From: Candidatus Firestoneibacteriota bacterium
GTDB lineage: Bacteria > Oederibacteriota > D2-FULL-39-29 > JBBTED01
Direction of reading: 5' to 3'
DNA: 18,868 bases
Assembly (NCBI GenBank): GCA_038042445.1
Contig: JBBTED010000148.1
Location: 1-18,868, forward strand
The translations under genes were made by a program, and so were the position numbers. This document shows, one piece after another, positions 1-17,613 of this stretch. Numbering within the stretch: the stretch's first letter is position 1; every line of letters begins with the position of its first letter. The notes under the pieces are model-generated. The model saw nothing but the letters and a program-made list of their open reading frames with translations, was not told the DNA's origin and made no database searches.

Positions 1-1763
1 ATATCGGGTATTTCAAGCAACTTGCTAGTGATATAGCAATGCAACATATTATGTTGATTTCCTTGTGGTTGCAAATCTTTAACAAAAACTGCGATATACC
101 CTTTTGGTTTTAAATATTCTACCGATTTCGCTATAACTTTTTTTAGTGATTCCAAGAAACTTTCCCTATCCATATTACCCAAATCTGTTTCTTGATTAGT
201 AAATGGTGTTGCCATTGCAATGCCAATTTTCTTTTTTTTCTGTCCTGTTCGTTTTTTGCTTAACATCTCACCATAAGGCGGATCAGTAAGAATAAAATCA
301 ATTTTTGTATTTTCTTTGAGCAACTTATCAATTTTTAAAGAGTCGCCAACAATTGCTGTTTGTTCAGAAACATTAAGTTCCTTGCAAACTTTTTTGTATA
401 AATCAATATACTCTTTTGACAAATCAACGCCAATACCTTTTCGGTTAGATAGCGAACAAGCAATAAGTGTTCCGCCAACACCCATAAATGGGTCAAGAAC
501 GGTTTGGTCCTCTTTCGTGAAGAAATCAACAAATTTTTTCATCAATTGTGGTGGCTTCGGTGATGGGTGTTTACCTCGCAAATGGTGAGCAAAACCATCC
601 ACACCTCTTGTTGAGTAATGCGTTACTTCAACAGAATTTAGAAAGTAAATCCACTCCGAACCGCTCAAATCATTAAGCTTATTATTTTGATTTATGCTCT
701 TGAGATAATAAAGTTTTTCTTTTACTCCGTTTTTCTGATCGCCGTTACTATTGCTTTTGTATCTTTGATAATCCTGTTCTGCTACTTCTGTTTTTCCTGC
801 ATTATTAAATAATTTTGATATTTCTTTTTCCGGCATAATACCATCATCGTTGTAGCTTAAAATCAAATGCTTAAAATTCCCATTTTTAATAATTTCGCCA
901 AGTGCTTTTATGCCCGATTTTGAATTGCAAAATTCGGATTTCTGCTCTTCATACGCCCTCATTCCAGTAATGCCTTTAATTTCGGGTTTGTCCCATTTTG
1001 CAATAGTTTCTAAAATATGATAGTTAGGCGCATATTGTCGCTCATTGTAAGGCGGATCAAGATATAAAATATCGATAACTTTTATTTGGTCAAAAACATT
1101 TAGGCCATTGATATTAAACACTTTGTGAGTTTCGTCACTCTTAATAATTTCTGGCACTTCAAGTGTTAGTTTCTTAAACGCTCGCTTGTCCCATTCTTTA
1201 AGAAAAGCAGAATAAGTCCCGCTGATATTTGCGACAAATGGTACTGCTTCAATAAGAGCACCAAGCAAGAAAAAATACTCTTGTTCATTAAGTAAGTTTG
1301 ATTTTTCCCATTCTTCAATTTTCCCTCGTATTGCATCAATACGCTTGGCATTATCACCCATAAAGTATTTGCGGACATGAGTTTGCCCTTGTGTGCCTTC
1401 CGGCGAGTAGTTTTTATAAATAAATCCTTCAATCCCTTCTAAATTATTAAGATATTTAATTATTTCTTTTGCATTTTGACTATCACTGGTAAAAAGAGTT
1501 TCCTCAACAGGATTTATTTTAAAATGTTTTAATAATTTTGCGAATTCAGGATATTGATTTTGTTCAATATAAACTTTTTGCAAAACATAAGAAAAATATA
1601 AAATATCAGATGAAATAATTTTATAGCCAAGTTTTTTAAAATGTTTGCCAACGCTTCCTGTTCCGGCAAAAAGATCACAAAAAACATTACCTCTTATATC
1701 CTTTTCTTTGACAAAGGTTTCTATAAAACTCAACAAATTCTCTTTACACCCAATAAATCTCAT
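1..1763 (-). CDS. Fused two-domain amino DNA methyltransferase (N-terminal M.NlaIII/M.HpyI-like adenine MTase plus C-terminal N4/N6 MTase); 3' end beyond window
   Basis: Manual translation from ATG at 1763 (MRFIGCKENLL...) stays open to the window edge (~587 codons). Domain 1: DLFAGTGSVG (~1655-1676) and DILYLDPPYNERQY (Asp codon 1058-1056). Domain 2: HPSPKP, VLDPFMGVGGT (~474-494) and DFILTDPPY (Asp codon 284-282), all in one frame. Absent from the ORF track because there is no stop in the window. Confidence 0.9.
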   Translation of the reverse strand, partial: MRFIGCKENLLSFIETFVKEKDIRGNVFCDLFAGTGSVGKHFKKLGYKIISSDILYFSYVLQKVYIEQNQYPEFAKLLKHFKINPVEETLFTSDSQNAKEIIKYLNNLEGIEGFIYKNYSPEGTQGQTHVRKYFMGDNAKRIDAIRGKIEEWEKSNLLNEQEYFFLLGALIEAVPFVANISGTYSAFLKEWDKRAFKKLTLEVPEIIKSDETHKVFNINGLNVFDQIKVIDILYLDPPYNERQYAPNYHILETIAKWDKPEIKGITGMRAYEEQKSEFCNSKSGIKALGEIIKNGNFKHLILSYNDDGIMPEKEISKLFNNAGKTEVAEQDYQRYKSNSNGDQKNGVKEKLYYLKSINQNNKLNDLSGSEWIYFLNSVEVTHYSTRGVDGFAHHLRGKHPSPKPPQLMKKFVDFFTKEDQTVLDPFMGVGGTLIACSLSNRKGIGVDLSKEYIDLYKKVCKELNVSEQTAIVGDSLKIDKLLKENTKIDFILTDPPYGEMLSKKRTGQKKKKIGIAMATPFTNQETDLGNMDRESFLESLKKVIAKSVEYLKPKGYIAVFVKDLQPQGNQHNMLHCYITSKLLEIPD

Positions 1764-1830
1764 AATTATTTTATTAAATCATTATCGCTCAATCTCTAAT
1801 ACTTTGAAGATTTTGATTAGTATTTTTATA

Positions 1831-1859
1831 ATGATAACTAATTTAAAAAACTTTGTCTA
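1831..1859 (-). promoter_or_regulatory. Putative sigma-70 promoter for the methyltransferase
   Basis: Minus strand TAGACA (1859-1854), 17-nt spacer, TATCAT (1836-1831), about 70 nt upstream of the ATG. Confidence 0.5.
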
Positions 1860-1891
1860 TTTCTTTTTGACAGATTATTGCAGTAAAATTA

Positions 1892-1938
1892 AAATCCCCC
1901 TTCAATCCCCTTTTTAAAAGGGGGAAAGAGGGGGATTT
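1892..1938. repeat. C/G-tract palindromic repeat, family A, copy 1; may also terminate glnA
   Basis: AAATCCCCCTTCAATCCCCTTTTTAAAAGGGGGAAAGAGGGGGATTT; related copies at 5880-5929, 14598-14629, 18442-18480. Confidence 0.8.
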
Positions 1939-1966
1939 AATATAATAAATTTTTCAGGAATTACAA

Positions 1967-3454
1967 TTAAATATCAAAGTAAAGATAAAATTCATACGGA
2001 TGCGGTCTTAAACGTACGGCATCTATCTCTTTTTCACGTTTATATTCAATCCATACATCAATTACATCTTGTGTAAATACACCACCCTGCAAAAGAAATT
2101 TATAATCTTTTTCTAATGCACAAATAGACTCTTCTAATGAACCCGGCACAGTAGGAACTTTTTTTGCTTCAGCTTCACTTAACTCGTATATATTTGCATC
2201 TAATGGATCACCCGGATCAATTTTATTTTGTATTCCATCTAACCCAGCCATAAGCATTGCAGCAAAAGAAATATATGGATTACAGGAACAATCTGGTGGC
2301 CTAAACTCAATTCTTTTAGCTTTTGGATTATCTGTATAAACAGGAATACGAATAGAAGCAGAACGATTTCTCTGAGAATATGCAAGATTAACCGGAGCTT
2401 CATAGCCTGGCACTAATCTCTTGTATGAATTTGTAGTTGGAGCGCAAAAAGCCATAAGCGCATTTGCATGTTTCAAAAGCCCGCCTATGTAATATTTTGC
2501 AGTCTGTGAAAGTAATCCATAACCTTTTGGATCATAAAAAATATTCTTGCCATCTTTCCATAGAGACTGATGCGTATGCATACCTGAACCATTATCTCCA
2601 AATAACGGCTTTGGCATAAAAGTAGCTACCATATTGTTCTTTTTAGCAACATTTTTAACTATATATTTAAACATCAGGCATCTATCTGCCATTTTTACAA
2701 GAGTATCAAATTTCATATCGATTTCACACTGTCCTGCAGTTGCAACTTCATGATGATGCACTTCTACATTTATCCCTGCTTTCATCATTGTAAGAATAAT
2801 TTTACTTCTTAAATCCTGCAAAGAATCATGTGGAGCAACTGGAAAATACCCTTCTTTATATCTTGGTTTATATCCAAGATTTGGTTTTTCATCTCTTCCT
2901 GAATTCCATTCACCTTCATCTGAATCAATAAAATAATATCCTGAGTTTTCTGTCTGGTCAAAACGAATATCATTAAAAAGGAAAAATTCTAATTCAGGTC
3001 CCCAGCAACTTTTATCTGCAATTCCTGTGCTTCTTACATATTCTGCTGCTTTTTTTGCTACATAACGTGGATCTCTGGTATAGGGTTTTCTAGTTATTGG
3101 ATCGTATATGTCACATACAATACTTAAAGTCGGAATTTCACATATAGGATCTAAAACTGCAGTTGTTGGATCTAATTGTAAAACCATATCTGATTCATGG
3201 ATTTTCTGAAATCCTCGAATTGACGAACCATCAAAACCAATACCTTCAGCCCATATAGATTTAATTGGATCATCTATTTCTGATAATTCTGCAACAGGAA
3301 TAGAAAAATGCTGCCACATACCCGGCAAATCATTGAATTTAAAATCCACAATCTGGATATTGTGTTCTTTAATCAATTGATTTACTTTCTGAATTGCCTT
3401 TTCATCAATATTGTCTTTATATTTACTAACTAATTTTACTCCCGGTTTTGCCAT
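1967..3454 (-). CDS. glnA: Glutamine synthetase type I (GSI-beta-like)
   Basis: [70 protein letters not shown]; beta-type insert ([10 protein letters not shown]...EGYFPV); adenylylation-site-like NIYEL; RBS AAGGAGG at 3467-3461. Confidence 0.98.
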
Positions 3455-3528
3455 TTTAATCCTCCTTTTTAAAACTCCCCTTTAATAACAAACTGTATTA
3501 AAATTGTTTTTTCAATTTCTTTTCTATG

Positions 3529-3598
3529 TGGTAGTCGCAAGCTTTAGCTTGCGGTATTTTTTTACCATTTTTTCGCAGGCTAAAGCCTGCGACTACCA
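3529..3598. repeat. GTAG-type REP doublet (REPIN-like), family B, copy 1
   Basis: TGGTAGTCGCAAGCTTTAGCTTGCG ... CGCAGGCTAAAGCCTGCGACTACCA: two inverted GTAG-plus-palindrome units; near-identical copy at 8812-8869. Confidence 0.85.
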
Positions 3599-3631
3599 TT
3601 ATAATACAATCTCTAAAAGGGGAATTTGTTT

Positions 3632-3973
3632 TTACCCGATTGCAACGCTTCCGTGTTCACCTGTGCGAATACGCACACAATCTTCTAAATTCAAAACAAA
3701 AATCTTTCCGTCTCCTGTTTCTCCTGTTTTTGCGCCTTTTGTAATCGCTTTAACTGTCCTCTCTACAAAACTATCATTAACTGCAATTTCTAATCTAATC
3801 TTTCGCAATAAATTGCCTGTTTCTTTTGCGCCACGATATACTTCTGTAACACCCTTTTGCCTGCCATGTCCAAGCACTTCACTTACTGTTATAAGATTAA
3901 TTTCCTCTTTATACAGTTCGGTTTTCACCTCCTCTAATCTATGTGGCTGAATAATAGCAATAATAAGTTTCAT
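3632..3973 (-). CDS. glnK: PII nitrogen regulatory protein (T-loop lacks Tyr51)
   Basis: 113 aa; GHGRQKG, YRG, TGETGDGKIFV, RIRTGE; directly downstream of amtB. Confidence 0.95.
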   Translation of the reverse strand: MKLIIAIIQPHRLEEVKTELYKEEINLITVSEVLGHGRQKGVTEVYRGAKETGNLLRKIRLEIAVNDSFVERTVKAITKGAKTGETGDGKIFVLNLEDCVRIRTGEHGSVAIG

Positions 3974-3992
3974 AATTTTTTTAATTACCCTC

Positions 3993-5222
3993 CTATTCTA
4001 AAATAGTATATGCACTTTCATGATGTTGTGTAAGGTCAAGTCCCATAATTTCATCTTTTTCATTAACCCGAATTCCAACAAACAAATCAACTAATTTATA
4101 TATTATAAAAGTAACTATAAAAGAATATCCCACAGTTACTAAAACTGCTATTAGCTGAATGATAAATTGTTTGGGATTACCAAAAAATAAACCATCTGCT
4201 CCAGCAGGATTTACAACCTTGGAAGCAAATAAACCAGTAGCTAAAACTCCCCAAATTCCTCCTATGCAATGAACTCCAAAAGCATCTAATGAATCATCAT
4301 AACCAAATTTAGGCTTAATTATACTTACTGCAATAAAACAAAAAATACTTACTAATGAACCAATTAATATCGCAGATAGGACATTTACAAATCCTGCAGC
4401 TGGTGTAATAGCCGCTAAACCTGCTATAGCTCCAGTCACAACTCCAAATACTGTAGGTGTTCCATTTATTTTCCATTCCAACAATGCCCAACTTAAACCT
4501 GCTGCTGCACCTGCAGTATTCGTCACAACAAATGCACTAACTGCTAAGCTATTAGCTGCTAATGCACTGCCTGCATTAAAACCAAACCAGCCAAACCATA
4601 AAAGTCCAGCTCCTAAAACTGTAAAAGGCAAGTTATGCGGCGGAATAGGTTTGTCATCATAATGTTTTCTTCTACCAATCAATAAAGCAACAACTAATGC
4701 CGCTATTCCAGCACTAATATGCACAACTATTCCACCTGCAAAATCAAGTGCACCTAAATTTCTAAGCCATCCACCAATACCCCATACCCAATGCGCAACA
4801 GGATCATATACAAGAGTAGTCCACAAAATAGTAAATATCAAAAATGCAGAAAATTTCATTCTTTCAGCAAAAGCACCTATAATCAAAGCTGGTGTAATTA
4901 TTGCAAACATTGCCTGAAAAATCATAAATGCCTGATGTGGTATAGTTGCAGCATAATCAGCATAAGGCTCGAATCCTACGCCTTTTAAAGCAAACCAGCT
5001 TAAATTACCAATAAAACCCCCATTTGGAGAAAACGAAAGACTGTAGCCGAATAACACCCATTGCAAACTCAAAACGCACAAAGCAATGAAACATTGCATT
5101 AAAATTCCCAATACATTTTTTCGTCTAACCATTCCACCATAGAAAAATGCCAAACCTGGAGTCATCAACATTACTAATCCCGCAGAAATCAAAACAAATG
5201 CCGTATCACCTGAATTTACCAT
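3993..5222 (-). CDS. amtB: Ammonium transporter AmtB
   Basis: LMTPGLAFFYGG, FQAMFA, AERMKF, HWVWG, DFAGGIVVH, WFGWFGFNAGS, DDSLDAFGVH (twin-His conserved), GLDLTQH. Confidence 0.97.
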   Translation of the reverse strand: MVNSGDTAFVLISAGLVMLMTPGLAFFYGGMVRRKNVLGILMQCFIALCVLSLQWVLFGYSLSFSPNGGFIGNLSWFALKGVGFEPYADYAATIPHQAFMIFQAMFAIITPALIIGAFAERMKFSAFLIFTILWTTLVYDPVAHWVWGIGGWLRNLGALDFAGGIVVHISAGIAALVVALLIGRRKHYDDKPIPPHNLPFTVLGAGLLWFGWFGFNAGSALAANSLAVSAFVVTNTAGAAAGLSWALLEWKINGTPTVFGVVTGAIAGLAAITPAAGFVNVLSAILIGSLVSIFCFIAVSIIKPKFGYDDSLDAFGVHCIGGIWGVLATGLFASKVVNPAGADGLFFGNPKQFIIQLIAVLVTVGYSFIVTFIIYKLVDLFVGIRVNEKDEIMGLDLTQHHESAYTILE

Positions 5223-5255
5223 ATACCCCCGTCTCCTTATCCTTAAATCTGATTC

Positions 5256-5299
5256 AAATAAAAAAGGCGTCCTTTACCATTTACGGTAAAGACGCCTTT
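5256..5299 (-). terminator. Leader attenuator terminator upstream of amtB
   Basis: Minus strand AAAGGCGTCTTTACC-GTAAAT-GGTAAAGGACGCCTTT running into TTTTTTATTT, about 35 nt before the amtB start. Confidence 0.85.
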
Positions 5300-5362
5300 G
5301 TCTTAAACTAGTATTTTCTTGCTAAACTTTACTATTTTGTTATGGCATACGTCAATGTAGCC
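5289..5362 (-). promoter_or_regulatory. ANTAR-type tandem hexaloop hairpins in the amtB leader
   Basis: P1 TAC-ATTGAC-GTA (5359-5348) and P2 AAGAC-AAAGGC-GTCTT (5304-5289); both loops have A1/G4 and C-G closing pairs; P2 overlaps the 5' arm of the terminator. Confidence 0.7.
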
Positions 5363-5372
5363 TTACAATAAA

Positions 5373-5402
5373 TACAAGTAAAAATCCATCAATTTTGGTA
5401 AC
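5373..5402 (-). promoter_or_regulatory. Putative alternative-sigma promoter, copy 2 (GTTACC-N17-ACTTGTA)
   Basis: GTTACC 5402-5397 and ACTTGTA 5379-5373; same boxes and spacer length as 8238-8209 while the spacer centre differs. Confidence 0.6.
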
Positions 5403-5424
5403 CTGTATTTTATAATTTTTTAAC

Positions 5425-5516
5425 TATGGTCTGTCTTATTCCACCAGACTATAATTTTTTAATTATGGTCTGTGACCAAAGGGAATGGTAAAACCATCTT
5501 CTTCCACCAGACCATA
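5425..5516. repeat. Two tandem TATGGTCTG...CAGAC(C/T)ATA hairpin repeats, family D
   Basis: 5425-5453 and 5464-5516, both with TTCCAC before the right arm; third copy at 8261-8289. Confidence 0.75.
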
Positions 5517-5522
5517 GTTTTT

Positions 5523-5861
5523 TCATAAAACCTCATCCCCTTTTGCCCCTGTTCGTATCCGTATTGCATCATCAATAGTAGAAATAAATATTTTGCCATC
5601 TCCTATTTCACCGGTTTTGGCACCCTCAATTATAGTCTTTATAACAAGTTCAACATCGCTATCTTTTACAATAGCTTCTATTTTTATTTTTGGCAAAAGC
5701 TCTACTCTGTATTTTTCACCACGCCATTGCTGAACTATTCCTCTTTGTTTCCCCTGCCCTTCAATTTCAGTAACCATTAAACCCCCATGCCCAAGTTTTT
5801 CTAATGCCCGATGCACCTGTTCAAGTTTTTCAGGCCTAATTATTGCTTCTATTTTTTTCAT
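5523..5861 (-). CDS. glnK: PII nitrogen regulatory protein (Tyr51 retained)
   Basis: 112 aa; MKKIEAIIRP, GQGKQRG, WRGEKYRVELLPK, TGEIGDGKIF, RIRTG; downstream of amt. Confidence 0.95.
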   Translation of the reverse strand: MKKIEAIIRPEKLEQVHRALEKLGHGGLMVTEIEGQGKQRGIVQQWRGEKYRVELLPKIKIEAIVKDSDVELVIKTIIEGAKTGEIGDGKIFISTIDDAIRIRTGAKGDEVL

Positions 5862-5879
5862 ATCATTTCACCCCTTTTT

Positions 5880-5929
5880 AAATCCCCCTTAATCCCCCTT
5901 TTTCAAAGGGGGAAATAGGATGGGGATTT
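5880..5929. repeat. C/G-tract palindromic repeat, family A, copy 2
   Basis: AAATCCCCCTTAATCCCCCTTTTTCAAAGGGGGAAATAGGATGGGGATTT between amt and glnK. Confidence 0.8.
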
Positions 5930-5930
5930 T

Positions 5931-7256
5931 TTACTTCTCTATTATTTTCATAAAAGAATAACTTGGCTTACGAGACAAAAATTCAGGATACGCAGTATTT
6001 CCATGTTCACCAATGTCTAAACCTTCTATTTCTTCATGGAGACTAACTCGTAAACCCACAACAGCTTTTATTATTCCCCATATCACCAACGATCCAACAA
6101 AAGTAAATACTGCTACACCTGCAATACCTGTTAATTGAGCAAAAAGTAGTTTCGTTCCACCACCAAAAAATAATCCATTACCAGTAACTGTTCCTGTTAT
6201 ACCATCTTGTGCAAACAAACCAACACATAGAGTTCCAAACACACCATTTACAAGATGAACTGATAAAGCACCAACAGGATCATCTAATTTTAATCTGTCA
6301 AACATCATAACAGCTAAAACTACAAAAATTCCGGCTAATAAACCGATAACAATTGAACTTCCTACACTTACATAAGCGCATGAAGCTGTTATTGCCACAA
6401 GTCCTGCAAGACAACCATTTAAAGTCATACCTAAATCTGGTTTACCCAATAATATCCATGAAAGAATTGTTGAACTTAACACTGCCATTATTGCAGCAGT
6501 ATTTGTTGTTACTACAACATGTGAAATTGCATTTGGATCAGCAGCCATTGTGGAACCCGGGTTAAATCCAAACCACCCAAGCCATAATACAAAAGTACCA
6601 ATAGTAGCTATAGTAAGATTATGACCTGGAATAGGATTTATATTTCCATTATCGCCGTATTTTCCAAACCTAGGCCCTAATACTAAAATTCCAGCCAAAG
6701 CAGCCCATCCCCCAACTGAATGAACAACAGTAGAACCTGCAAAATCAAACATACCAAGTTTTGCAAGCCATCCACCACCCCATATCCAATGTCCAATAAC
6801 AGGATAAATAAACATTGCCATTACAAATGTAAACAGGATAAATGATTTATATTTTATCCTTTCTGCTACTGCACCAGATACAATCGTAGCTGCAGTTCCA
6901 CAAAACACAAGCTGGAAGAAAAATTTTGCTAACAGTGGAACACCTGTCCAATTTATTGCTGAATAAACACCCTGATAATTTGCACCTGTTGCAGGAGAAT
7001 TATCAGCTCCGCTCAAGAAAAATAATCCATTTAAACCTAAAAACCCATTTCCATCTCCAAACATCAAACCCCATCCCAGAGCCAAAAATCCAAATGATGA
7101 AATTGCAAATACTATAAAATTCTTTGAAAGAATATTCACACAGTTTTTCGCCCTTGCAAATCCTGCTTCAACCATAGCAAACCCCAAATTCATAAAAAAC
7201 ACAAGCATTGCAGTAATTAAAACCCAAAGTGTATCTAAAGCAATTTTATAATCCAT
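5931..7256 (-). CDS. amt: Ammonium transporter (Amt family, different subtype from the 409-aa AmtB)
   Basis: LVFFMNLGFAMVEAG, FFFQLVFCGTAATIVSGAVAER, HWIWGGGWL, DFAGSTVVH, WLGWFGFNPGS, DDPVGALSVH, GLDIGEHG. Confidence 0.97.
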   Translation of the reverse strand: MDYKIALDTLWVLITAMLVFFMNLGFAMVEAGFARAKNCVNILSKNFIVFAISSFGFLALGWGLMFGDGNGFLGLNGLFFLSGADNSPATGANYQGVYSAINWTGVPLLAKFFFQLVFCGTAATIVSGAVAERIKYKSFILFTFVMAMFIYPVIGHWIWGGGWLAKLGMFDFAGSTVVHSVGGWAALAGILVLGPRFGKYGDNGNINPIPGHNLTIATIGTFVLWLGWFGFNPGSTMAADPNAISHVVVTTNTAAIMAVLSSTILSWILLGKPDLGMTLNGCLAGLVAITASCAYVSVGSSIVIGLLAGIFVVLAVMMFDRLKLDDPVGALSVHLVNGVFGTLCVGLFAQDGITGTVTGNGLFFGGGTKLLFAQLTGIAGVAVFTFVGSLVIWGIIKAVVGLRVSLHEEIEGLDIGEHGNTAYPEFLSRKPSYSFMKIIEK

Positions 7257-7271
7257 TTCCCCTCACCTCCC

Positions 7272-8012
7272 TCAGAGATTTATATCTAACTGACTTGTCC
7301 ATTTCATATCACCATTTATACCAGAATCATTAAACCATACAGGTCCAACCAGCAAGGAAATATTGTTTGTAAAAAAGAAATATACTCCTATTCCACCACC
7401 ACCAAGTGCATTTTTTCCTGCAGCATAATCACCTGCAAACAGAATTTTATCTTCGTAAATATATTTATCGTATCCCACCATAAAACCTTTATTGTCAACA
7501 TTACCACTACTGTCTTTTAATGTATTACTTCCTGCATAGTATCCCAAATGAACTCTTCCTAAACTAAATGGCAATGTTTTACCAACAATAAAATCAAAAA
7601 TATTGTAATCAGTAACACCAGATTTTGTGCCCACATTAAATATACCGATATTCAAAGCAGGTGAATCTGCAAAAAATATATTTTCTGGTGTTCCGATTTT
7701 AGCATTAAAATACAATGGGTCATCACTTGGTTCCATTAAATCCACACCAACTTCCATTTTCACTTCATCATAAGGAAAAACACCAATCGTAAGACCAAAA
7801 TCCGTTGGAAAATCCTGACCACCTAAAGTTAAACTTTTTTTACCTATTGTAGTGTAATTATCAACACCAATATGCAAAACGCCATAAGACTGAATATCAA
7901 AAACACAAGGACTCCAGTATGTTGTTGACGGTGTCCCAAAAACAAAACCCACAGGCACAACTACAAACACAAATAACGCAAAAACTAAACTCAATATCTT
8001 TTGTCTATGCAT
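7272..8012 (-). CDS. Exported protein, probable outer-membrane beta-barrel of unknown family
   Basis: N-terminal signal peptide (MHRQK plus hydrophobic stretch); Gly/aromatic-rich alternating segments; C-terminal WTSQLDINL resembles a final barrel strand; strong RBS AGGAGGAGG. Confidence 0.7.
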   Translation of the reverse strand: MHRQKILSLVFALFVFVVVPVGFVFGTPSTTYWSPCVFDIQSYGVLHIGVDNYTTIGKKSLTLGGQDFPTDFGLTIGVFPYDEVKMEVGVDLMEPSDDPLYFNAKIGTPENIFFADSPALNIGIFNVGTKSGVTDYNIFDFIVGKTLPFSLGRVHLGYYAGSNTLKDSSGNVDNKGFMVGYDKYIYEDKILFAGDYAAGKNALGGGGIGVYFFFTNNISLLVGPVWFNDSGINGDMKWTSQLDINL

Positions 8013-8033
8013 CTTTATTCCCTCCTCCTACTT

Positions 8034-8060
8034 TGTCATGCTGAATTTATTTCAGCATCT
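8034..8060. repeat. TGTC-type palindromic REP-like unit (single)
   Basis: TGTC-ATGCTGAA-TTTAT-TTCAGCAT-CT; starts with TGTCAT like the units at 17503-17604. Confidence 0.55.
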
Positions 8061-8066
8061 CTTTAC

Positions 8067-8127
8067 AAATAAAAAAAGCGTTCTTCACCCAACGAAGTTT
8101 CGCCCAACTCTGGGTAAAAACGCCTTT
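8067..8127 (-). terminator. Second leader attenuator terminator upstream of the barrel-amt-glnK unit
   Basis: Minus strand AAAGGCGTTTTTACCCA...TGGGTGAAGAACGCTTT running into TTTTTTATTT; overlapped by hairpin GAC-AAAGGC-GTT (8130-8119). Confidence 0.75.
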
Positions 8128-8198
8128 GTCTAAAAAACTCTTAAAATAAAAAAGGCGTTCTTTTTAAGAACGCCTATGTTTTGCTACACATCAATGTG
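8119..8198 (-). promoter_or_regulatory. ANTAR-type hexaloop hairpins (three) in the leader
   Basis: CAC-ATTGAT-GTG (8198-8187), AAC-ATAGGC-GTT (8180-8169, 6-nt linker), GAC-AAAGGC-GTT (8130-8119); all A1/G4 loops; the second and third overlap terminator 5' arms. Confidence 0.75.
8143..8175 (-). terminator. First leader attenuator terminator (also ends the nadE-sigma transcript)
   Basis: Perfect stem AGGCGTTCTT-AAA-AAGAACGCCT followed by TTTTTATTTT. Confidence 0.85.
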
Positions 8199-8208
8199 CT
8201 TCTATATA

Positions 8209-8238
8209 TACAAGTAAAATTTCTTTAGTTTTGGTAAC
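8209..8238 (-). promoter_or_regulatory. Putative alternative-sigma promoter, copy 1 (GTTACC-N17-ACTTGTA), overlapping the sigma stop codon
   Basis: GTTACC 8238-8233 (within codons S-Y-Q) and ACTTGTA 8215-8209; duplicated at 5402-5373. Confidence 0.6.
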
Positions 8239-8794
8239 TTGTATTTTGTGATTTTTTAACTATGGTCTGTCTTTTTCCACCAGACCATAATTCTTTTTTT
8301 AATCTACTGCATTTGTTTCTTATTTTATTTTGTATTTTCATCACCATCACATGTGAAATGCCTAATTTCTGACCTATTTCTCTTACTGTCCATTCTTCTA
8401 TCCAAAGAGATAAAACATCTTTTTCTCTTTCAGTTAAACCAACACTTGTATAAATTGTATCAACCAACAATTTATTCTCCAACAAATTTCCATTGTCAAC
8501 TGATATTATCTCCCCTAATTCTATTTTGCTTTCATCAATAATATTATTTAAACTAACTACAATAACATTGTCAGAAACTTTACGCAGATAATTTTTTAAA
8601 TAAAAATAGCATCCCTGCAATATATAACTATTAGTTTTTTCATTTAGTTTTTCCTCTTTAAAACATTGCCAGAGATATATAAGAGCTTCCTGAAATAAAT
8701 CGTCATCATCTATAAATGTCCAACGACCATTTAATCTTTTTGTTATACGCCTTAATACAGGTGATGTTTTTTTAACAAGTTCTTCAAATTGCAT
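8225..8794 (-). CDS. Alternative sigma-70 family factor (ECF/SigH-like, regions 2 and 4 only)
   Basis: 189 aa; region 2 DDDDLFQEALIYLW...YFYLKNYLRK; region 4 HTH LTEREKDVLSL...TVREIGQKLGISHVMV; no adjacent anti-sigma gene. Confidence 0.85.
   Translation of the reverse strand: MQFEELVKKTSPVLRRITKRLNGRWTFIDDDDLFQEALIYLWQCFKEEKLNEKTNSYILQGCYFYLKNYLRKVSDNVIVVSLNNIIDESKIELGEIISVDNGNLLENKLLVDTIYTSVGLTEREKDVLSLWIEEWTVREIGQKLGISHVMVMKIQNKIRNKCSRLKKELWSGGKRQTIVKKSQNTSYQN
8261..8289. repeat. Family D hairpin repeat inside the 3' end of the sigma gene
   Basis: TATGGTCTG-TCTTTTTCCAC-CAGACCATA, encoding LWSGGKRQTI. Confidence 0.7.
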
Positions 8795-8811
8795 ATTTTT
8801 TCTCTTTGTAG

Positions 8812-8869
8812 TGGTAGTCGCAAGCTTTAGCTTGCGGTATTTTTCGCAGGCTAAAGCCTGCGGCTACCA
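8812..8869. repeat. GTAG-type REP doublet (REPIN-like), family B, copy 2
   Basis: TGGTAGTCGCAAGCTTTAGCTTGCG-GTATTTTT-CGCAGGCTAAAGCCTGCGGCTACCA. Confidence 0.85.
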
Positions 8870-8916
8870 TTATGACACAATGACACAGTTTGAATTACAA
8901 TTGCGAAACAACCTCT

Positions 8917-10596
8917 TTAATTTACAATACTATATTTGTTAGTAATAGGCATCCGTCTGTCTTTACCAAATGCTTTAGGTGTAATTTTAATTCCAGGCGG
9001 AGATTGCCTGCGTTTGTGTTCACTTTTATCAACCATTCTAATGACCTTGGATACTATTGTTTTATCTGTATTCATCTCATCAACATCTTTATCTTCCTCT
9101 ACATAAGATTTTAATATAGGATCCAAAATTTCATAAGCAGGCAATGTATCTTTGTCTTTTTGCCCAAATTTAAGTTCAGCAGTTGGCTCTTTTGTAAGTA
9201 TACGTTCAGGAATTACCAAACCAAGAGAATTTCTATATTTTGCCAATTTATAAACTAATGTCTTCGGCACATCTTTGATTACAGCTAATCCACCTGCCAT
9301 ATCACCATATAATGTAGCATAACCAGTGCTCATTTCAGATTTATTGCCTGTAGTTAAAACTAACCATCCAAATTTATTTGAAAATGCCAATAAAATATTT
9401 CCTCTTATACGTGCCTGTAAATTTTCCTCTGCAATATCTTTCTGCAAACCAAGAAAATAAGGTTCAATAACCATAAGATAAATTTTATATATCTGTTCAA
9501 TAGAGATATGTAGAAATTTTATACCTAAATTATGTGCTAAACTTTTAGCATCAGTTTCTGATTCAGAAGAAGAATAACGAGTTGGCATAAATACTCCAGT
9601 TACATTCTCTTTACCTAATGCATCCGCTGCAATAGTACCAACAAATGCAGAATCAATCCCCCCACTTAATCCTACAACAACCTTTTTAAAATTATTTTTT
9701 TCAACGTAATCTTTTAAACCTAAAGTTAAAGCCTTATAAATTTCTGCTGCTGGCTCTAATATTTTTATATCTCTTTTAGACAATACATCTTTAGATTTAA
9801 AGGAAAACTTTTTTTCAATTACTACAACCTTTTCTGATACTTTTTTTACTTCCAAATTTTTGATTGGCAAATCAAATACCAAATAATCTTCTTCAAATGC
9901 TAATCCTCTATTTTTAATTTTGCCTTTTGTATCTACAACCATACTTTGTCCATCAAAAACCAATTCGTCCTGGCCACCAACCAAATTAGTATAAACAATA
10001 GCTACAGAATTATCTCTTGCCTGTTCGCAAATAGTTAATTCTCTTTCCTGAATCTTACCTGCATGATAAGGAGAAGCACTTATATTAAGAATTAAATTTG
10101 CCCCTGCTAAAGCCTGTTTTTTTACCGGACCATCTTTCCACCATATATCCTCACAAATATTTACCCCAAAAATCGCTTCCCCAAATTTAAATACTATTGT
10201 CTCATTCCCCTGTTTAAAATAACGGTTTTCATCAAAAACTCCATAATTCGGCAAAAACATTTTGTGATACACATCTCTAATTTTTTTCTTATAAATTATT
10301 GCAGCGGAATTATATATATTCCCTTCCTGTTTATCCACAAAACCTATAACAACTACAATATCATCAACAAACTTAGTTATATATTTCAATTTATCTATGT
10401 TTTCTTCAATAAAACTATTTTTAAGCAAAAGATCCTCTGGCGGATAACCTGCAATTGCAAGTTCAGGAAAAGAAATTATATCAACTCCAAGTTTTTTTGC
10501 CTTCTCAATACCTGCAATTATTTTTTCTGTATTATTTTTCAAATCTCCAACTGTAAAATTCAATTGCGCACAACAAATTCTTATATTATTTTCCAT
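8917..10596 (-). CDS. nadE: Glutamine-dependent NAD+ synthetase
   Basis: Nitrilase-fold glutaminase triad (FPELAIAGYPPEDLL, YHKMFLPNYGVFDE, ICEDIW) fused to synthetase domain (GLSGGIDSA, ENLQARIRG, TTGNKSE, GYATLYGD, PTAEL, KRRQSPPG). Confidence 0.97.
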   Translation of the reverse strand: MENNIRICCAQLNFTVGDLKNNTEKIIAGIEKAKKLGVDIISFPELAIAGYPPEDLLLKNSFIEENIDKLKYITKFVDDIVVVIGFVDKQEGNIYNSAAIIYKKKIRDVYHKMFLPNYGVFDENRYFKQGNETIVFKFGEAIFGVNICEDIWWKDGPVKKQALAGANLILNISASPYHAGKIQERELTICEQARDNSVAIVYTNLVGGQDELVFDGQSMVVDTKGKIKNRGLAFEEDYLVFDLPIKNLEVKKVSEKVVVIEKKFSFKSKDVLSKRDIKILEPAAEIYKALTLGLKDYVEKNNFKKVVVGLSGGIDSAFVGTIAADALGKENVTGVFMPTRYSSSESETDAKSLAHNLGIKFLHISIEQIYKIYLMVIEPYFLGLQKDIAEENLQARIRGNILLAFSNKFGWLVLTTGNKSEMSTGYATLYGDMAGGLAVIKDVPKTLVYKLAKYRNSLGLVIPERILTKEPTAELKFGQKDKDTLPAYEILDPILKSYVEEDKDVDEMNTDKTIVSKVIRMVDKSEHKRRQSPPGIKITPKAFGKDRRMPITNKYSIVN

Positions 10597-10610
10597 TTTT
10601 CACCATCCCC

Positions 10611-10681
10611 AAATAAAAAAACGTCCTTTTCCTCAACGAATATACAGCACTAAAACCCACAATCACCGTGGAAAAGGACGT
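10611..10681 (-). terminator. Leader attenuator terminator upstream of nadE
   Basis: 12-bp perfect stem ACGTCCTTTTCC...GGAAAAGGACGT (37-nt loop) followed by TTTTTTATTT, between promoter and RBS; hexaloop hairpin CTAC-AAAGCA-GTAG at 10711-10698 upstream. Confidence 0.7.
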
Positions 10682-10721
10682 CTTCAAAAACCTACTACTA
10701 CTGCTTTGTAGCTCTATTTAT

Positions 10722-10749
10722 AGTATACTACATTTTTCAAATTTGTCAA
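10722..10749 (-). promoter_or_regulatory. Housekeeping sigma-70 promoter for nadE-sigma
   Basis: TTGACA (10749-10744), 16-nt spacer, TATACT (10727-10722). Confidence 0.7.
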
Positions 10750-10784
10750 GTTTTTCTCAGGTTTTTTTTCATAACAATTAAGTA

Positions 10785-10813
10785 TTGACATATAAAAAAA
10801 TACATAGTAATCT
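10785..10813 (+). promoter_or_regulatory. Housekeeping sigma-70 promoter for pckG
   Basis: TTGACA (10785-10790), 17-nt spacer, TAATCT (10808-10813); RBS TAAGGAGG 10833-10840. Confidence 0.65.
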
Positions 10814-10849
10814 TTAGCACAATAAATTTAATTAAGGAGGAATTTATAT

Positions 10850-12622
10850 ATGGCAACACCGATTGAAAAATGGGTTGAAGAACAGGCAAAACTTGCAAAG
10901 CCAAATAAAATTTACTGGTGTAATGGTTCGCTTGAAGAAGCACACAAACTTATTGAAATAGGAGAAACAAAAGAAAAAATCGGGAAAAATTATCTTTTTA
11001 ATAATCTCAATTGCAAAACATATCCTAATAGTTATATCCATCACAGCCATCCTACAGATGTAGCACGAACAGAACATCTAACTTATATATGCCATTCTGA
11101 CAAAGAAACAACAGGTCCTAATAATAACTGGATGGAACCAAATGAAGCAAAACAACTGATGACCAAATTATCTGATGGATGTATGCGCGGCAAAACAATG
11201 TATGTTCTTCCTTATATGATGGGTCATCCTGATTCACCTTATGCAAAAGCATGCGTTCAGCTTACAGATGTAAGTTATGTTGCTATAAGTATGCGAATTA
11301 TGTGCAGAATGGGAAAAAATATACTTGATAAAATAGGAAATTCAGAAAATTTTGTAAAAGGATTCCATTCAGTTGGCGATTTTGATCCTAATAAACGTTT
11401 TATTATGCACTTCCCTGATGAAAATTTTGTATGGAGCATAGGCTCTGGATATGGCGGAAATGCATTGCTTGGTAAAAAATGTTTCTCTTTAAGGCTTGCT
11501 TCATACCTTGGATTACATCAAAATTGGCTTGCTGAACATATGATTGTTATTGGTATAGAAGACCCCAATGGAAATACTACTTATATAACAGCCGCATTCC
11601 CGAGTGCTTGTGGAAAAACAAATCTTGCAATGTTAGAATCCGCTATACCGGGATACAAAATATGGACACTTGGAGATGACATTGCATGGCTGAATATAGG
11701 AGAAGATGGCAGATTATATGCAATAAACCCGGAAATGGGATTTTTCGGAGTTGCACCAGGCACTTCTATGAAAACAAATCCAAATATGATGCAGACTTTA
11801 AAAGCAGGCACATTTTACCCCACGCTATTTACTAATACAGCATTAGATATTGACAATAATGAACCATGGTGGGAAGGTATTGATGGCGAAATTCCTAAAA
11901 ATCTACTTGACTGGCAGAATAAAAAATGGACGTCTGACCTAAACACAAAAGCAGCACATCCAAATTCAAGATTTACAGTATCAGTTTCTCAATGTCCAAC
12001 TCTATCTAAAGAATATAACAACCCAAAAGGTGTACCAATATCTGCAATGATTTTTGGTGGAAAAAGAAGTAAACTTCTGCCTTTAATATATGAAAGTTTC
12101 AACTGGCAACATGGAGTATTTGCAAGTGCAAGAATGGGTTCAGAAACAACAGCTGCAGCCGCTAGCAAAGTTGGAGTTCTACGAAGAGACCCAATGGCAA
12201 TGCTACCATTTTGTGGATATAATATGGGTGACTACTTCAAACACTGGATTGAATTTGGTAAAAAAATTCCGCATCCTCCAAAAATATTTTTTGCAAACTG
12301 GTTCAGGACAGATGAAAACAATAATTTTATGTGGCCCGGATTCGGAGAAAACATACGTGTATTGGACTGGATAATAAAAAGAGTGAACAATAAAGTTTCA
12401 GCCAAAGAAACATCTATAGGCCTTGTCCCTATGACAAACGATTTAAACCTTACAGGTATGAATATTCCCAAAGAAAACTTACAAAAACTATTTGAAATAA
12501 ATCCAACAGACTGGCAAGATGAAATAACCGATGTAGAAAAGTTTTTAACTCAATTTGGGAAACGTATGCCTGAAGATATTTGGTCTGAGTTTAGAAAATT
12601 CAAGTCGAGCTTTTCAAAATAA
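10850..12622 (+). CDS. pckG: Phosphoenolpyruvate carboxykinase (GTP)
   Basis: SGYGGNALLGKKCFSLR, WLAEHM, AAFPSACGKTNLAM, GDDIAW, INPEMGFFGVAPGT, AAHPNSRF, RRDPMAMLPFCGYNMGDY, WPGFGENIRVL. Confidence 0.97.
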   Translation: MATPIEKWVEEQAKLAKPNKIYWCNGSLEEAHKLIEIGETKEKIGKNYLFNNLNCKTYPNSYIHHSHPTDVARTEHLTYICHSDKETTGPNNNWMEPNEAKQLMTKLSDGCMRGKTMYVLPYMMGHPDSPYAKACVQLTDVSYVAISMRIMCRMGKNILDKIGNSENFVKGFHSVGDFDPNKRFIMHFPDENFVWSIGSGYGGNALLGKKCFSLRLASYLGLHQNWLAEHMIVIGIEDPNGNTTYITAAFPSACGKTNLAMLESAIPGYKIWTLGDDIAWLNIGEDGRLYAINPEMGFFGVAPGTSMKTNPNMMQTLKAGTFYPTLFTNTALDIDNNEPWWEGIDGEIPKNLLDWQNKKWTSDLNTKAAHPNSRFTVSVSQCPTLSKEYNNPKGVPISAMIFGGKRSKLLPLIYESFNWQHGVFASARMGSETTAAAASKVGVLRRDPMAMLPFCGYNMGDYFKHWIEFGKKIPHPPKIFFANWFRTDENNNFMWPGFGENIRVLDWIIKRVNNKVSAKETSIGLVPMTNDLNLTGMNIPKENLQKLFEINPTDWQDEITDVEKFLTQFGKRMPEDIWSEFRKFKSSFSK

Positions 12623-13793
12623 CAGATTTTGCAGTAATAGCAGTTAAAAACCATACGAGCATAATTACTTCTGAATCTCCAAAATTGTATTCAAAAATAC
12701 CTGAAACTAAAAATGCTGAAAAAGCGGCTAAAAATCCGAGAAGTAGAGATTTTAAAAATTCATCACTCGCTTTTTTTAATGAAGTCACTCCCCACCTGTA
12801 AAAGCAAAATATCATCCATAAAAAAGCTAAACCACCTAACATACCACGTTCCACTACTATCTGGATAAAATTATTATGTAAATGACCTTGATGTGGATAA
12901 TATGCTTCTGGCATTTTATAAAGTGGATATAATTGTCCCACATTTTCCAAACCTATACCTAAAGGATGATCTTTTATCATTTCAATCCCACTTTTCCACA
13001 TACAAATTCTTTCAAAATTAGACTCTGGCTCAACTATACTTCTTATTCTCCCACCCAGCGTGCTCGTTGGAAAGAAACTCGCAACACAAATAAATATTAC
13101 AGCTATTATTGTAAATATCAGTATAAGTTTTTTTGATTTTAGAATTCCCAGTATTATCAATGAAACTGCAATTCCAAGCCATGCACCTCTTGCAAATGTA
13201 AACACGAGTGCAATAGATATTAATATTGTGCAAGGCATTAAAACGCGTTTTGACAATATCTTACCCTCATTTTTAAAATTTATCAAAAATGGTATTATTA
13301 TTGAAATCACCATTATCAATATCTCCGCCAAAGTCAATGACAAACTAAATGTCCCCTCTAATTTCCATCCACCACCTGTCCAATATTTTATGATTCCATA
13401 GATTGACTCAAAAGTCGCTGAAAATATTATTAGCAATACAAGTTTTTTAGCCTGTTCTAAACTTTTGACATTGTTTGAAACAAAAAAATAAATTAGCATT
13501 AAACCAACTGTTTTAAACATTCCCCCTACGCTATTATGCATATTTATAGATAGAATTGTTGATAAAATTGTTGCAGCAATAAATAATAATATAGCTGTAT
13601 CTAATGGAGTTTTGGTATAATATTTTTTTTCTTCTGTTAGCATTTTTACTACCCACGCAATTAATCCAACAAAAAACCCAAGCTGAGTAAGTGTAATTGA
13701 CCAGGCACATCCAACAGCAAATAGAATCAGTCCCCACTCAATTGCAAAATCGCAATACTTAATTAGCTTTTCCTTTGAAATAGAGTTAACCAT
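12600..13793 (-). CDS. O-antigen ligase (WaaL/Wzy_C) family membrane protein
   Basis: Multi-pass hydrophobic protein; TFARGAW, SNFERICMW...KDHPLGIG, HLHNNFIQ...ERG; LPS cluster context. Confidence 0.85.
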   Translation of the reverse strand: MVNSISKEKLIKYCDFAIEWGLILFAVGCAWSITLTQLGFFVGLIAWVVKMLTEEKKYYTKTPLDTAILLFIAATILSTILSINMHNSVGGMFKTVGLMLIYFFVSNNVKSLEQAKKLVLLIIFSATFESIYGIIKYWTGGGWKLEGTFSLSLTLAEILIMVISIIIPFLINFKNEGKILSKRVLMPCTILISIALVFTFARGAWLGIAVSLIILGILKSKKLILIFTIIAVIFICVASFFPTSTLGGRIRSIVEPESNFERICMWKSGIEMIKDHPLGIGLENVGQLYPLYKMPEAYYPHQGHLHNNFIQIVVERGMLGGLAFLWMIFCFYRWGVTSLKKASDEFLKSLLLGFLAAFSAFLVSGIFEYNFGDSEVIMLVWFLTAITAKSVILKSST

Positions 13794-14554: not shown

Positions 14555-14597
14555 ATAATAAAATTAGTATACATAATATCAAACATTTTTCAAAGCA

Positions 14598-14629
14598 AAA
14601 TCCCCCTACCCCTTTACTAAAGGGGGATT
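14598..14629. repeat. Family A repeat, copy 3, supplying the last codons and stop of the GT2-GT9 gene
   Basis: AAATCCCCCTACCCCTTTACTAAAGGGGGATT; stop TAG at 14619-14617 lies inside it. Confidence 0.65.
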
Positions 14630-17491: not shown

Positions 17492-17502
17492 ATTTATTTT
17501 AT

Positions 17503-17604
17503 TGTCATTCCTGCGAAAGCAGGAATCCAGTTTTTTTGCTTTCTACTGCTTAAAACATGTAAAAATAGACACTGGATTCCCGCTTACTACATGCGGGAAT
17601 GACA
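17503..17604. repeat. TGTC-type inverted REP doublet (dRS3/RPE-like), family C
   Basis: TGTCATTCCTGCGAAAGCAGGAATCCAGT ... ACTGGATTCCCGCTTACTACATGCGGGAATGACA; ATTCC-N-GGAAT palindromes in inverted orientation. Confidence 0.85.
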
Positions 17605-17613
17605 CGATGTCCA

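Follow-up and report, generated by a model that had tools for sequence, protein, structure and literature searches.

The stretch of DNA analysed here is an 18,868-nucleotide (nt) contig from a Candidatus Firestoneibacteriota bacterium (JBBTED010000148.1; hereafter the window), in which a run of nitrogen-assimilation genes may be controlled by a dedicated sigma factor together with RNA attenuators. An earlier note on this DNA had described eight genes as co-oriented, and a listing of open reading frames (ORFs) with Pfam and NCBIfam searches places all eight on the minus strand and confirms their families. The run starts with nadE (8917-10596), which encodes a glutamine-dependent NAD+ synthase with CN_hydrolase and NAD_synthase domains (NF010588, 706.9 bits), and continues with the gene for a 189-amino-acid (aa) sigma-70-family factor (8225-8794). 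This factor resembles the extracytoplasmic function (ECF) type, with a sigma4 domain and a putative sigma2 domain. A 246-aa porin-like barrel (7272-8012), assigned by structure prediction and without a Pfam or NCBIfam family, heads a unit with amt1 (5931-7256) and glnK1 (5523-5861). The last three genes are amt2 (3993-5222), glnK2 (3632-3973) and glnA (1967-3454), the last encoding a type I glutamine synthetase (GS). Pfam and NCBIfam identify both Amt proteins as ammonium transporters and both GlnK proteins as PII proteins.

The sigma factor and its relatives

The sigma factor is recognised by the Sigma70_r4 family (PF04545, E 1.8e-7, residues 119-162) and by TIGR02937, which spans residues 2-163 and scores 55.1 bits, above its cut-off of 42.9. 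When a profile of the family was compared with the PDB, it matched FliA, SigA and SigF-type chains, with region 4 of FliA aligned and region 2 of FliA aligned weakly (11.7 bits). All top Foldseek matches of an AlphaFold2 model in the PDB were sigma-70-family proteins, and about 170 columns aligned to whole ECF sigma factors. The template modelling (TM) score was only ~0.3, a value to be expected for two domains with a flexible link. There are 389 homologues at E <= 0.001, the closest 55-56% identical and several of them labelled Omnitrophota; the best matches of both NadE and the sigma factor are records with this label. In an alignment of 30 family members, a region-2-like block (L59 Q60 G61 C62 .. 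N68 R71) is invariant, as are R138, G141 and, in the region-4 helix, S147, H148, V149, V151 and K153.

Like ECF (group 4) sigma factors, the protein belongs to a size class of ~175-190 aa, has no domains beyond sigma4 and a putative sigma2, and appears to be paired with a bipartite promoter of fixed spacing. A cognate anti-sigma factor or an autoregulated promoter is frequent, though not universal, among ECF groups. The protein has no adjacent anti-sigma gene, its neighbours being nadE and the porin gene, and no autoregulated promoter was seen, since the promoter of the nadE-sigma operon is of the TTGACA type. Control apparently acts via attenuation of the mRNA. The candidate promoter here, GGTTACCA / ACTTGTA, is unlike the AAC / CGT type known for ECF factors.

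Species-representative genomes were scanned as well; of the 224 candidate stretches obtained, 218 encode a relative of the sigma factor, and 80 loci were fetched with 10-kb flanks. By their labels, 22 are Omnitrophota/Omnitrophica, 49 delta-proteobacterial or Syntrophorhabdus-like, 3 Planctomycetia, 3 Proteobacteria/Pseudomonadota, 2 Elusimicrobia and 1 Patescibacteria group. Synteny was scored by tblastn with the window proteins and with upstream ORFs of the relatives. Sigma homologues are linked to nitrogen genes, as the earlier note had expected: nadE lies within 450 nt upstream of sigma in 52 of the 73 loci that have at least 2.2 kb of upstream sequence, and a homologue of amt, glnK, glnA or the barrel follows sigma on the same strand in 36 of the 64 loci that have 3 kb or more of downstream sequence, whereas 0 of 80 loci have one on the opposite strand. 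The most constant neighbour is a gene for a GAF-ANTAR protein, found upstream of sigma on the same strand in 61 of the 67 loci with at least 3.5 kb upstream, 45 of which also have an adjacent nadE. Pfam detected both GAF and ANTAR domains in all 13 upstream ORFs sampled, which encode either GAF-ANTAR (~238 aa) or GAF-GAF-ANTAR (~408 aa) proteins. One locus (L020) has the gene order of the window with the ANTAR gene ahead: ANTAR, nadE, sigma, barrel, amt, glnK, amt, glnK, GS.

A bipartite promoter-like motif

Two exact copies of the bipartite motif GTTACC-N18-CTTGTA precede the two amt units on the minus strand, as the earlier note had reported. We regard them as candidate sigma-type promoters. 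The first (8209-8238) has its -35 part within the last sigma codons and stands before the barrel gene, and the second (5373-5402) stands before amt2. Only 0.01 copies would be expected in the window, and none of 200 shuffles reached two; nevertheless, both copies lie inside a 98-nt direct repeat (D1, 8204-8301 / 5368-5465, 86% identical) that extends over the final 77 bases of the sigma gene, so they represent one duplication and independent support has to come from the related loci.

Over the window and the 80 loci (1,287,965 bases) there are 86 exact copies on the sigma strand, 84 of them in the loci and 2 in the window, and a single copy on the opposite strand, where the rough expectation is ~0.5 per strand. 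Of the sigma-strand copies, 81 have a spacer of 18 nt and the other 5 one of 17 nt, and the consensus from 80 sites is gGTTACCAaaa-N7-ttttTTACTTGTA. The motif stands 10-35 nt ahead of the leader hairpins described below. In 48 of the 80 loci an exact copy lies at, or within ~300 nt after, the sigma stop codon, which it often overlaps; in many loci it begins 14 nt ahead of the point where that codon ends. In such loci the sigma frame runs into the -35 element GGTTACCAAAA of the next promoter, which gives many family members a G/S-Y-Q-N tail (L003, L004, L008, L017, L020, L026, L033, L042, L043, L048, L061, L062 and others).

The motif-led ORFs to which Pfam gives a family mostly encode Amt, PII, GS, glutamate synthase or porin proteins. 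Four motif sites in the loci have no ORF before the locus end, and 4 of 80 motif-led ORFs were excluded as truncated or mis-called (L006:4537-4743, L007:5447-5833, L011:10653-11033 and L057:12860-13165); in L007 and L011, tblastn shows that an amt gene begins just downstream of the excluded ORF. By Pfam, the 76 others comprise 16 Amt, 7 GS-III, 7 BBP2 porin, 4 GS-I and 4 PII proteins, 2 large subunits of glutamate synthase (GOGAT), 2 amino-acid permeases, one each of Prismane, GATase, HTH_8 and Gcw_chp, and 30 without a family, among which are homologues of the window barrel and some mis-called ORFs. A few motif-led ORFs are odd: an amino-acid permease with a C-terminal PII domain in L026 (10725-12596), possibly an artefact of ORF calling, a hybrid-cluster (prismane) protein in L061 (10719-12047) and a small Fis-type HTH protein in L042 (19785-20069).

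The -35 variant GTTGAC occurs only in L058 and L066, and so does the region-4 helix GISHMMVWKI, which differs from the GISHV.V.KI of the other loci. This pair may represent a natural variant of sigma specificity. At the sites concerned in these two loci, which are labelled Pseudomonadota, GTTGAC or GTTTAC replaces GTTACC (L058, 10577-10631 and 20011-20065; L066, 10566-10629). Sigma-54 promoters were considered for the nitrogen genes and rejected: a loose consensus gave 11 matches against 8.9 expected, none of them in the spacers ahead of nitrogen genes.

Ahead of its YQN end, the sigma protein of the window has an insertion of 15 aa that its relatives lack. The DNA that encodes these residues forms a hairpin, ATGGTCTG..CAGACCAT, of which two further copies lie in the glnK1-amt2 spacer (regions 8225-8301 and 5434-5526). 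Given this shared hairpin, the amt2 promoter region looks copied from the 3' end of the sigma gene after the insertion had taken place.

Leaders with hexaloop hairpins

Each motif copy in the window is followed by short hairpins with AxxGxx loops and by terminators, as the earlier note had described. The loops are ATTGAT/ATAGGC after the first copy and ATTGAC/AAAGGC after the second, and the second hairpin overlaps the terminator. In leader 1, ahead of the barrel gene, the first hairpin (P1) is GCAC-AUUGAU-GUGU (8186-8199, minus strand as for all features of the leaders), found in the sequence, by covariance model and in the fold. The second (P2), AAC-AUAGGC-GUU (8169-8180), shares its 3' half with the 5' arm of terminator 1, AGGCGUUCUU..AAGAACGCCU followed by U6 (8147-8175; terminator scan and fold); its score of 65.8 bits is that of a training sequence of the model. 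A second module follows at 8071-8131, where the hairpin AGAC-AAAGGC-GUUU overlaps terminator 2, GGCGUUUUUACCCA..UGGGUGAAGAACGC with U7 (17.2 bits, E 0.001, with filters off). Leader 2, ahead of amt2, has the P1 hairpin GGCUAC-AUUGAC-GUA(U)GCC (5344-5362; sequence and fold) and a P2 hairpin, AAGAC-AAAGGC-GUCUU (5289-5304), over the terminator GGCGUCUUUACC..GGUAAAGGACGCC with U6 (5260-5296); the whole P2-terminator element (5260-5304) scores 22.8 bits (E 1.9e-5). P1 and P2 are 5 nt apart in leader 1 and 39 nt apart in leader 2, where one extra hairpin stands between them. The hexaloops of the window, counting that of the nadE leader, are AUUGAU, AUAGGC, AUUGAC, AAAGGC and AAAGCA, each of which has A as its first base and G as its fourth. 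In leaders 1 and 2 the P2 and terminator stems share GGCGUU(C) and GGCGUCUU; the nadE leader has no such sharing. Since the terminators form in the minimum-energy folds, termination should be the default state. Terminator-like sites are enriched in the window as a whole (24 against 8.9 +/- 3.0 expected).

According to excerpts of the literature, an ANTAR target consists of two hairpins, each with a six-base loop in which the first base is A and the fourth is G (PMC12591593), and in the EutV model the antiterminator overlaps the terminator (PMC3369931). We described such leaders by a covariance model (R1), which superseded an earlier hairpin finder that required 4-bp stems and had missed or mis-called many leaders. 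The model has 96 matches at E <= 0.01, of which 94 are on the sigma strand and 67 outside the training set. An exact motif lies within 170 nt upstream of 70 of the 94 sigma-strand matches, and 10 more have a copy with 1-2 mismatches; the remaining ones are mostly nadE leaders behind TTGACA-type promoters. Among the matches outside the training set, in an alignment fitted to the model itself, the P1 loop has six bases in 59 of 67 (G at position 4 in 57 of these, A at position 1 in 38 and G at position 1 in 17) and the P2 loop has six bases in 56 of 67 (G at position 4 in all 56, A at position 1 in 42). The outer stem has a covariation score of 0.162 against 0.104 for shuffled alignments, with 0 of 500 shuffles as high; the P1 pair 2-32, for example, occurs as AU 13, GC 11, UA 8 and CG 2 times. 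A further hairpin of the form [AG]GAC-N6-GUC[UC], lying over a second terminator, occurs in 39 of 86 motif-led leaders, in 33 of them in tandem after the first module.

No Rfam family matched the leaders at the gathering threshold. In E-value mode over 1700-10900 all matches were below threshold, namely P11, which reached 29.5 bits where its gathering score is 70, and models of miRNA precursors that fell on the palindromic repeats; these matches were judged to be due to chance.

The nadE-sigma operon

The nadE-sigma operon has a housekeeping-type promoter, TTGACA-16-TATACT, with 11 of 12 matches (10722-10749, minus strand), and a leader terminator follows it in the fold, in agreement with the earlier note. 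In 49 of 54 related loci TTGAC[AG] is likewise found within 260 nt upstream of nadE, although in L023 and L030 the regular expression caught a later site. The window leader folds into a single hexaloop hairpin and a long terminator (-34.7 kcal/mol, z -4.5). The hairpin is P1-like, GCUAC-AAAGCA-GUAGU, with A at position 1 and G at position 4 of the loop (10697-10712, minus strand; in both the minimum free energy and the centroid folds), and the intrinsic terminator has a long stem and a U-run (10611-10685, minus strand). The nadE leaders of relatives have AGAC-AxUGAx-GUCU as P1, or a P1/P2 pair over a first terminator, and then GGAC-xxxGGC-GUCC over a terminator. In the window AGAC abuts GUCC and the hexaloop between them is missing; our guess is that this junction is a deletion fusion.

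Relatives also differ from the window between nadE and sigma. Omnitrophota relatives have a third ANTAR-type attenuator in a spacer of 93-125 nt, present in 11 of the 16 spacers printed (L017, L020, L026, L033, L042, L044, L048, L061, L065, L070 and L077). It consists of GUCUC-xxxGxx-GAGAC followed by GG(A/CG)C-AxxGAx-GCCC over the terminator GCCCUUU..AAAGGGC-U5. Two other Omnitrophota spacers of the 16 contain a separate TTGACA promoter and leader before sigma, and in loci of the Syntrophorhabdales type nadE directly adjoins sigma, at a distance of -4 to +4 nt.

In the window this spacer is occupied by a double-hairpin repeat, GGTAG..CGCAGGCTTTAGCCTGCG..CGCAAGCTAAAGCTTGCG..CTACC (8799-8881, minus strand; repeat families D7 and D11), which is not of the ANTAR type and has no U-run in the sense direction. 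The ~80-nt element occurs again in the glnK2-glnA spacer, before glnA (3516-3610). Its outer stem, GGTAG/CTACC, encloses CGCAGGC-TTTA-GCCTGCG and CGCAAGC-TAAA-GCTTGCG, the two halves being mutual inverted copies, and it resembles an intergenic element of the REP (repetitive extragenic palindromic) or MITE (miniature inverted-repeat transposable element) kind; its Rfam matches are all below threshold.

The porin-like barrel

The AlphaFold2 model of the barrel protein (predicted local distance difference test, pLDDT, 72.3; predicted TM score, pTM, 0.69) has a signal helix at residues 2-18 and 12 strands. Foldseek matched it to OmpF/OmpC-type porins (E 1e-5), and the 12-strand NanC is the best match in size (TM score by target 0.60). 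The C-terminal residue is F in the homologues and L in the window protein. Barrel homologues in relatives stand after the motif and before amt, a position that in other relatives is held by BBP2 porins or by a different small barrel. It is reasonable to regard the window barrel as a putative outer-membrane porin leading an ammonium-uptake operon. The barrels of L045, L079, L062 and L008 aligned poorly with it and were left out of the fold alignment as a separate type (one of them matches Gcw_chp).

Discussion

Our preferred explanation, to which we would give a probability of about two-thirds, is that a conserved module for the control of nitrogen assimilation, built from a sigma factor and ANTAR-type attenuators, is represented in the window by its output half. 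We infer three links in it: that the sigma factor reads the motif, that an ANTAR protein binds the hairpins, and that nitrogen status is the input. In the scheme we propose, a GAF-ANTAR RNA-binding antiterminator is, in relatives, encoded upstream, and a housekeeping-type promoter with a terminator-containing leader would drive nadE and the small ECF-like sigma gene. The GAF-ANTAR protein would sense nitrogen status, with 2-oxoglutarate and glutamine as mere guesses at its ligand; GAF domains are described as binding small molecules (in excerpts of PMC2995071). Active ANTAR antitermination would first permit transcription of nadE and sigma in the relatives. The sigma factor would then steer RNA polymerase to its own promoter type, of which the first copy overlaps the end of the sigma gene and further copies precede porin, amt-glnK, GS and GOGAT units.

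Behind every sigma-type promoter the leader would terminate by default. An ANTAR dimer on the two hexaloop hairpins would override termination, with the second hairpin sequestering the 5' arm of the terminator. Expression of the genes for uptake and assimilation would depend on the sigma factor for initiation and on the active antiterminator for elongation, and the circuit would amount to an AND gate in the form of a coherent feed-forward loop. Glutamine is consumed by NadE, and some proteobacteria have a link between nadE and PII signalling.

This sigma-plus-ANTAR explanation appears to hold at the level of the family and is partly supported in the window. Sigma-type promoters and attenuators are intact before barrel-amt1-glnK1 and before amt2-glnK2(-glnA), whereas ANTAR control of the nadE-sigma operon itself looks eroded. 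The earlier note had proposed a feed-forward cascade in which antitermination first releases sigma expression, the sigma factor acts at its own promoters, and antitermination is needed again for amt, glnK and glnA. The first of these steps has good support in relatives and poor support in the window, where the elements for the second and third, sigma-type promoters followed by attenuators, are intact before the two amt units; glnA has neither the motif nor hexaloop hairpins in front of it (motif scan and covariance model). We think that glnA is probably transcribed by read-through from amt2-glnK2 or else from an unrecognised promoter.

A number of observations count against the proposed module, beginning with the gaps in the window. 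An ANTAR homologue is absent from its 18.9 kb (best tblastn E 1.1; Pfam on 15 large ORFs), its nadE leader lacks a second hexaloop hairpin by eye, by fold and by the covariance model, which matches the terminator part alone (E 0.43), and its nadE-sigma spacer lacks the pre-sigma attenuator and has the unrelated double-hairpin repeat instead. For the sigma protein, Pfam did not detect Sigma70_r2 at E <= 0.001, and the AlphaFold2 model has a low pTM (0.44; pLDDT 72.6). The two motif copies of the window go back to one duplication, and the covariation between sigma and promoter in L058 and L066 may go back to one event in evolution. No homologue of amt, glnK, glnA or the barrel follows sigma in 28 of the 64 loci with at least 3 kb downstream. 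A sample of eight such loci shows mostly unrelated genes beside sigma (for example those for ribosomal protein S2, carbamoyl-phosphate synthase and sensor kinases), with glutamate dehydrogenase in one and glutamate-synthase-like pieces in another, from which we conclude that ANTAR-nadE-sigma is the constant core and that target genes may lie elsewhere in the genome. The leaders have weaknesses of their own. The covariance model was built from 29 leaders picked by a filter that required hairpins, so their hairpins match by construction, and the loop counts come from an alignment fitted to that model. Position 1 of the loop is G instead of A in roughly a quarter of the matches. The inner stem pairs of P1 and P2 are mostly conserved in sequence (CAC/GUG, AC/GU), so the covariation comes from the outer pairs only. 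Finally, the second tandem module lacks a P1 hairpin, and of its 39 loops 38 have G at position 4 but only 11 have A at position 1.

Some of these points would suit other explanations. The bipartite GTTACC/CTTGTA motif could be the operator at which some DNA-binding regulator acts, or could serve a different alternative sigma factor as its promoter, with the sigma factor studied here merely travelling with nadE. The link between this factor and the motif is drawn from sequence comparison, TACTTGTA is near-palindromic, the nadE-sigma operon uses a TTGACA-type promoter and so has no autoregulatory copy of the motif, and, as noted, many loci have no target-gene homologue after sigma. Against this stand the fixed 17/18-nt spacing, the 86:1 strand bias and the promoter-like position 10-35 nt ahead of the leader hairpins, the presence of the motif at or shortly after the sigma stop codon in 48 of the 80 loci, and the coincidence of the sole -35 variant with the sole region-4 helix variant. 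We consider an operator, or a promoter for some other sigma factor, improbable. The leaders, for their part, might not be ANTAR targets at all, being plain tandem terminators or insulators, or attenuators that sense a metabolite or another protein and contain short hairpins by chance. That they match no Rfam family, that their stems have a mere 3-4 bp and a conserved sequence, that the second tandem module is a single hairpin whose loop seldom has A at position 1, and that the window has no ANTAR gene would all agree with this. It seems to us a poor explanation, because the dual hexaloops with near-invariant G at position 4 and mostly A at position 1, the second of them over the terminator, fit the published ANTAR definition, because the GAF-ANTAR gene is the most constant neighbour of the module, and because published searches, in excerpts of PMC3369931, put ANTAR motifs before the same gene classes.

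The circuit might also be partly decayed in this genome, with the ANTAR partner lost or moved, nadE-sigma free of antitermination and the leaders reduced to leaky constitutive attenuators. A divergent gene for phosphoenolpyruvate carboxykinase (PEPCK) occupies the position of the relatives' ANTAR gene, the nadE leader has AGAC-GUCC without a hexaloop, a repeat element stands at the site of the relatives' pre-sigma attenuator, and the sigma tail contains a repeat-derived insertion. Set against this, both sigma-type leaders keep hexaloops with A at position 1 and G at position 4 as well as the overlap with the terminator, which argues for continued selection by an RNA-binding partner encoded elsewhere, and nadE is still behind a strong terminator that has to be overcome. 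Decay on this scale we regard as unlikely, and we continue to favour a module whose output half is intact in the window.

Since nitrogen genes under ANTAR control have been described before, what is new here is the sigma layer and the way in which the cascade is built. In 2012, ANTAR motifs were described as widespread before genes for PII proteins, ammonium transporters and glutamine/glutamate synthases, and GAF or PAS forms of ANTAR proteins as not yet characterised (Ramesh et al. 2012, PMC3369931, in excerpts). The leaders described here resemble the EutV-type ANTAR regulons of that source in their dual A1/G4 hexaloops, in the second hairpin lying over the terminator and in the nitrogen gene classes concerned. 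They differ in having a dedicated non-housekeeping promoter, in that many are tandem with a second single-hairpin module, in that loop position 1 is often G, and in that the antiterminator of the relatives is a GAF-ANTAR or GAF-GAF-ANTAR protein.

A parallel in logic is the Gnf cascade of Geobacter sulfurreducens (GnfL/GnfM and GnfK/GnfR), where, according to excerpts of Ueki and Lovley 2010 (PMC2995071), a special holoenzyme is followed by ANTAR antitermination at the leaders of nifH, glnK, amtB and other genes, which have a conserved ..GGCGCC motif over their terminators. The module shares this two-layer logic for nitrogen genes and is not a member of that system: in Geobacter the sigma factor is sigma-54, working with the enhancer-binding protein GnfM, and the antiterminator is GnfR, a REC-ANTAR protein that is phosphorylated, whereas here there is an ECF-like sigma factor, no sigma-54-type promoter and, in relatives, a GAF sensor. 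Klebsiella nasF, as far as it is covered by the excerpted sources, also combines control of initiation (NtrC/sigma-54) and antitermination (NasR, a NIT-ANTAR protein) in series, but is a single operon with nitrate sensed by the NIT domain; the regulon proposed here spans several ammonium-assimilation operons and has its own sigma factor.

The earlier note knew of no described layout with a sigma factor and ANTAR control, and full-text searches found none, either as an ECF-like sigma factor dedicated to ammonium assimilation with its promoter, or as a fixed coupling of sigma, GAF-ANTAR and nadE, or as a tandem attenuator layout. In the main text of the ECF re-classification paper, the terms nitrogen, ammonium, glutamine, 'NAD synth', Omnitroph and antitermin are all absent. 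Textbook nitrogen control runs through NtrBC/sigma-54, GlnR/TnrA, NtcA, AmtR or NrpR. To our knowledge, essentially nothing is known of nitrogen control in uncultivated phyla such as Omnitrophota, and the layout of sigma, motif and attenuators may be the main nitrogen-control circuit of two uncultivated lineages.

A wider proposal is correspondingly more tentative, and we would put it at slightly less than even odds. It holds that, in Omnitrophota, Syntrophorhabdales and some of their neighbours, this unnamed ECF-like sigma clade replaces NtrC/sigma-54, GlnR or NtcA as the master factor by which transcription for ammonium assimilation is initiated. It would be wired by GAF-ANTAR proteins into an AND gate, with the -35 element of its first target promoter in the last sigma codons, and upstream ANTAR control of sigma would have been rewired in the lineage of the window.

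What can be read from the sequence is in any case a testable circuit, comprising a GAF-ANTAR sensor, a dedicated sigma factor with a sharply defined promoter, RNA attenuators, and a regulon of porin, Amt, PII, GS and GOGAT genes. It would offer an orthogonal sigma/promoter pair and a protein-controlled attenuator for reconstitution in a laboratory host, and it gives a first handle on sensing by GAF-ANTAR proteins. The promoter motif could be used to predict nitrogen regulons in metagenome-assembled genomes.

Flanking genes and other repeats

The G+C content of the window is ~30-37%. On the nadE side, the family scan identifies the divergent flanking gene (10850-12622, plus strand) as a GTP-dependent PEPCK. 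Beyond it, 12600-18867 holds a cell-envelope glycan cluster with a Wzy_C/O-antigen-ligase-like protein, a family 2 glycosyltransferase (GT2), a GT2-heptosyltransferase fusion (584 aa), a second family 9 glycosyltransferase (GT9) and a DUF5693 protein. This cluster indicates a diderm cell with synthesis of a core like that of lipopolysaccharide, which agrees with the presence of a porin in the window. On the glnA side, Pfam identifies an open-ended 587-aa DNA methyltransferase (3-1763) in which a D12-class N6-adenine methyltransferase domain is combined with an N6_N4 DNA methylase domain, perhaps as a fusion or a double enzyme.

C-run/G-run palindromes, AAATCCCCC..CCCCCTTT / AAAGGGGG..GGGGGATTT, lie in the amt1-glnK1 spacer (5852-5919) and just after glnA (1864-1940). 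Both these palindromes and the two copies of the double-hairpin repeat (8799-8881 and 3516-3610) were considered as ANTAR targets and rejected because their loops are unfit (CUUUAG and CUAAAG as hexaloops). The palindrome after glnA has a T-run next to it and scores as a terminator.

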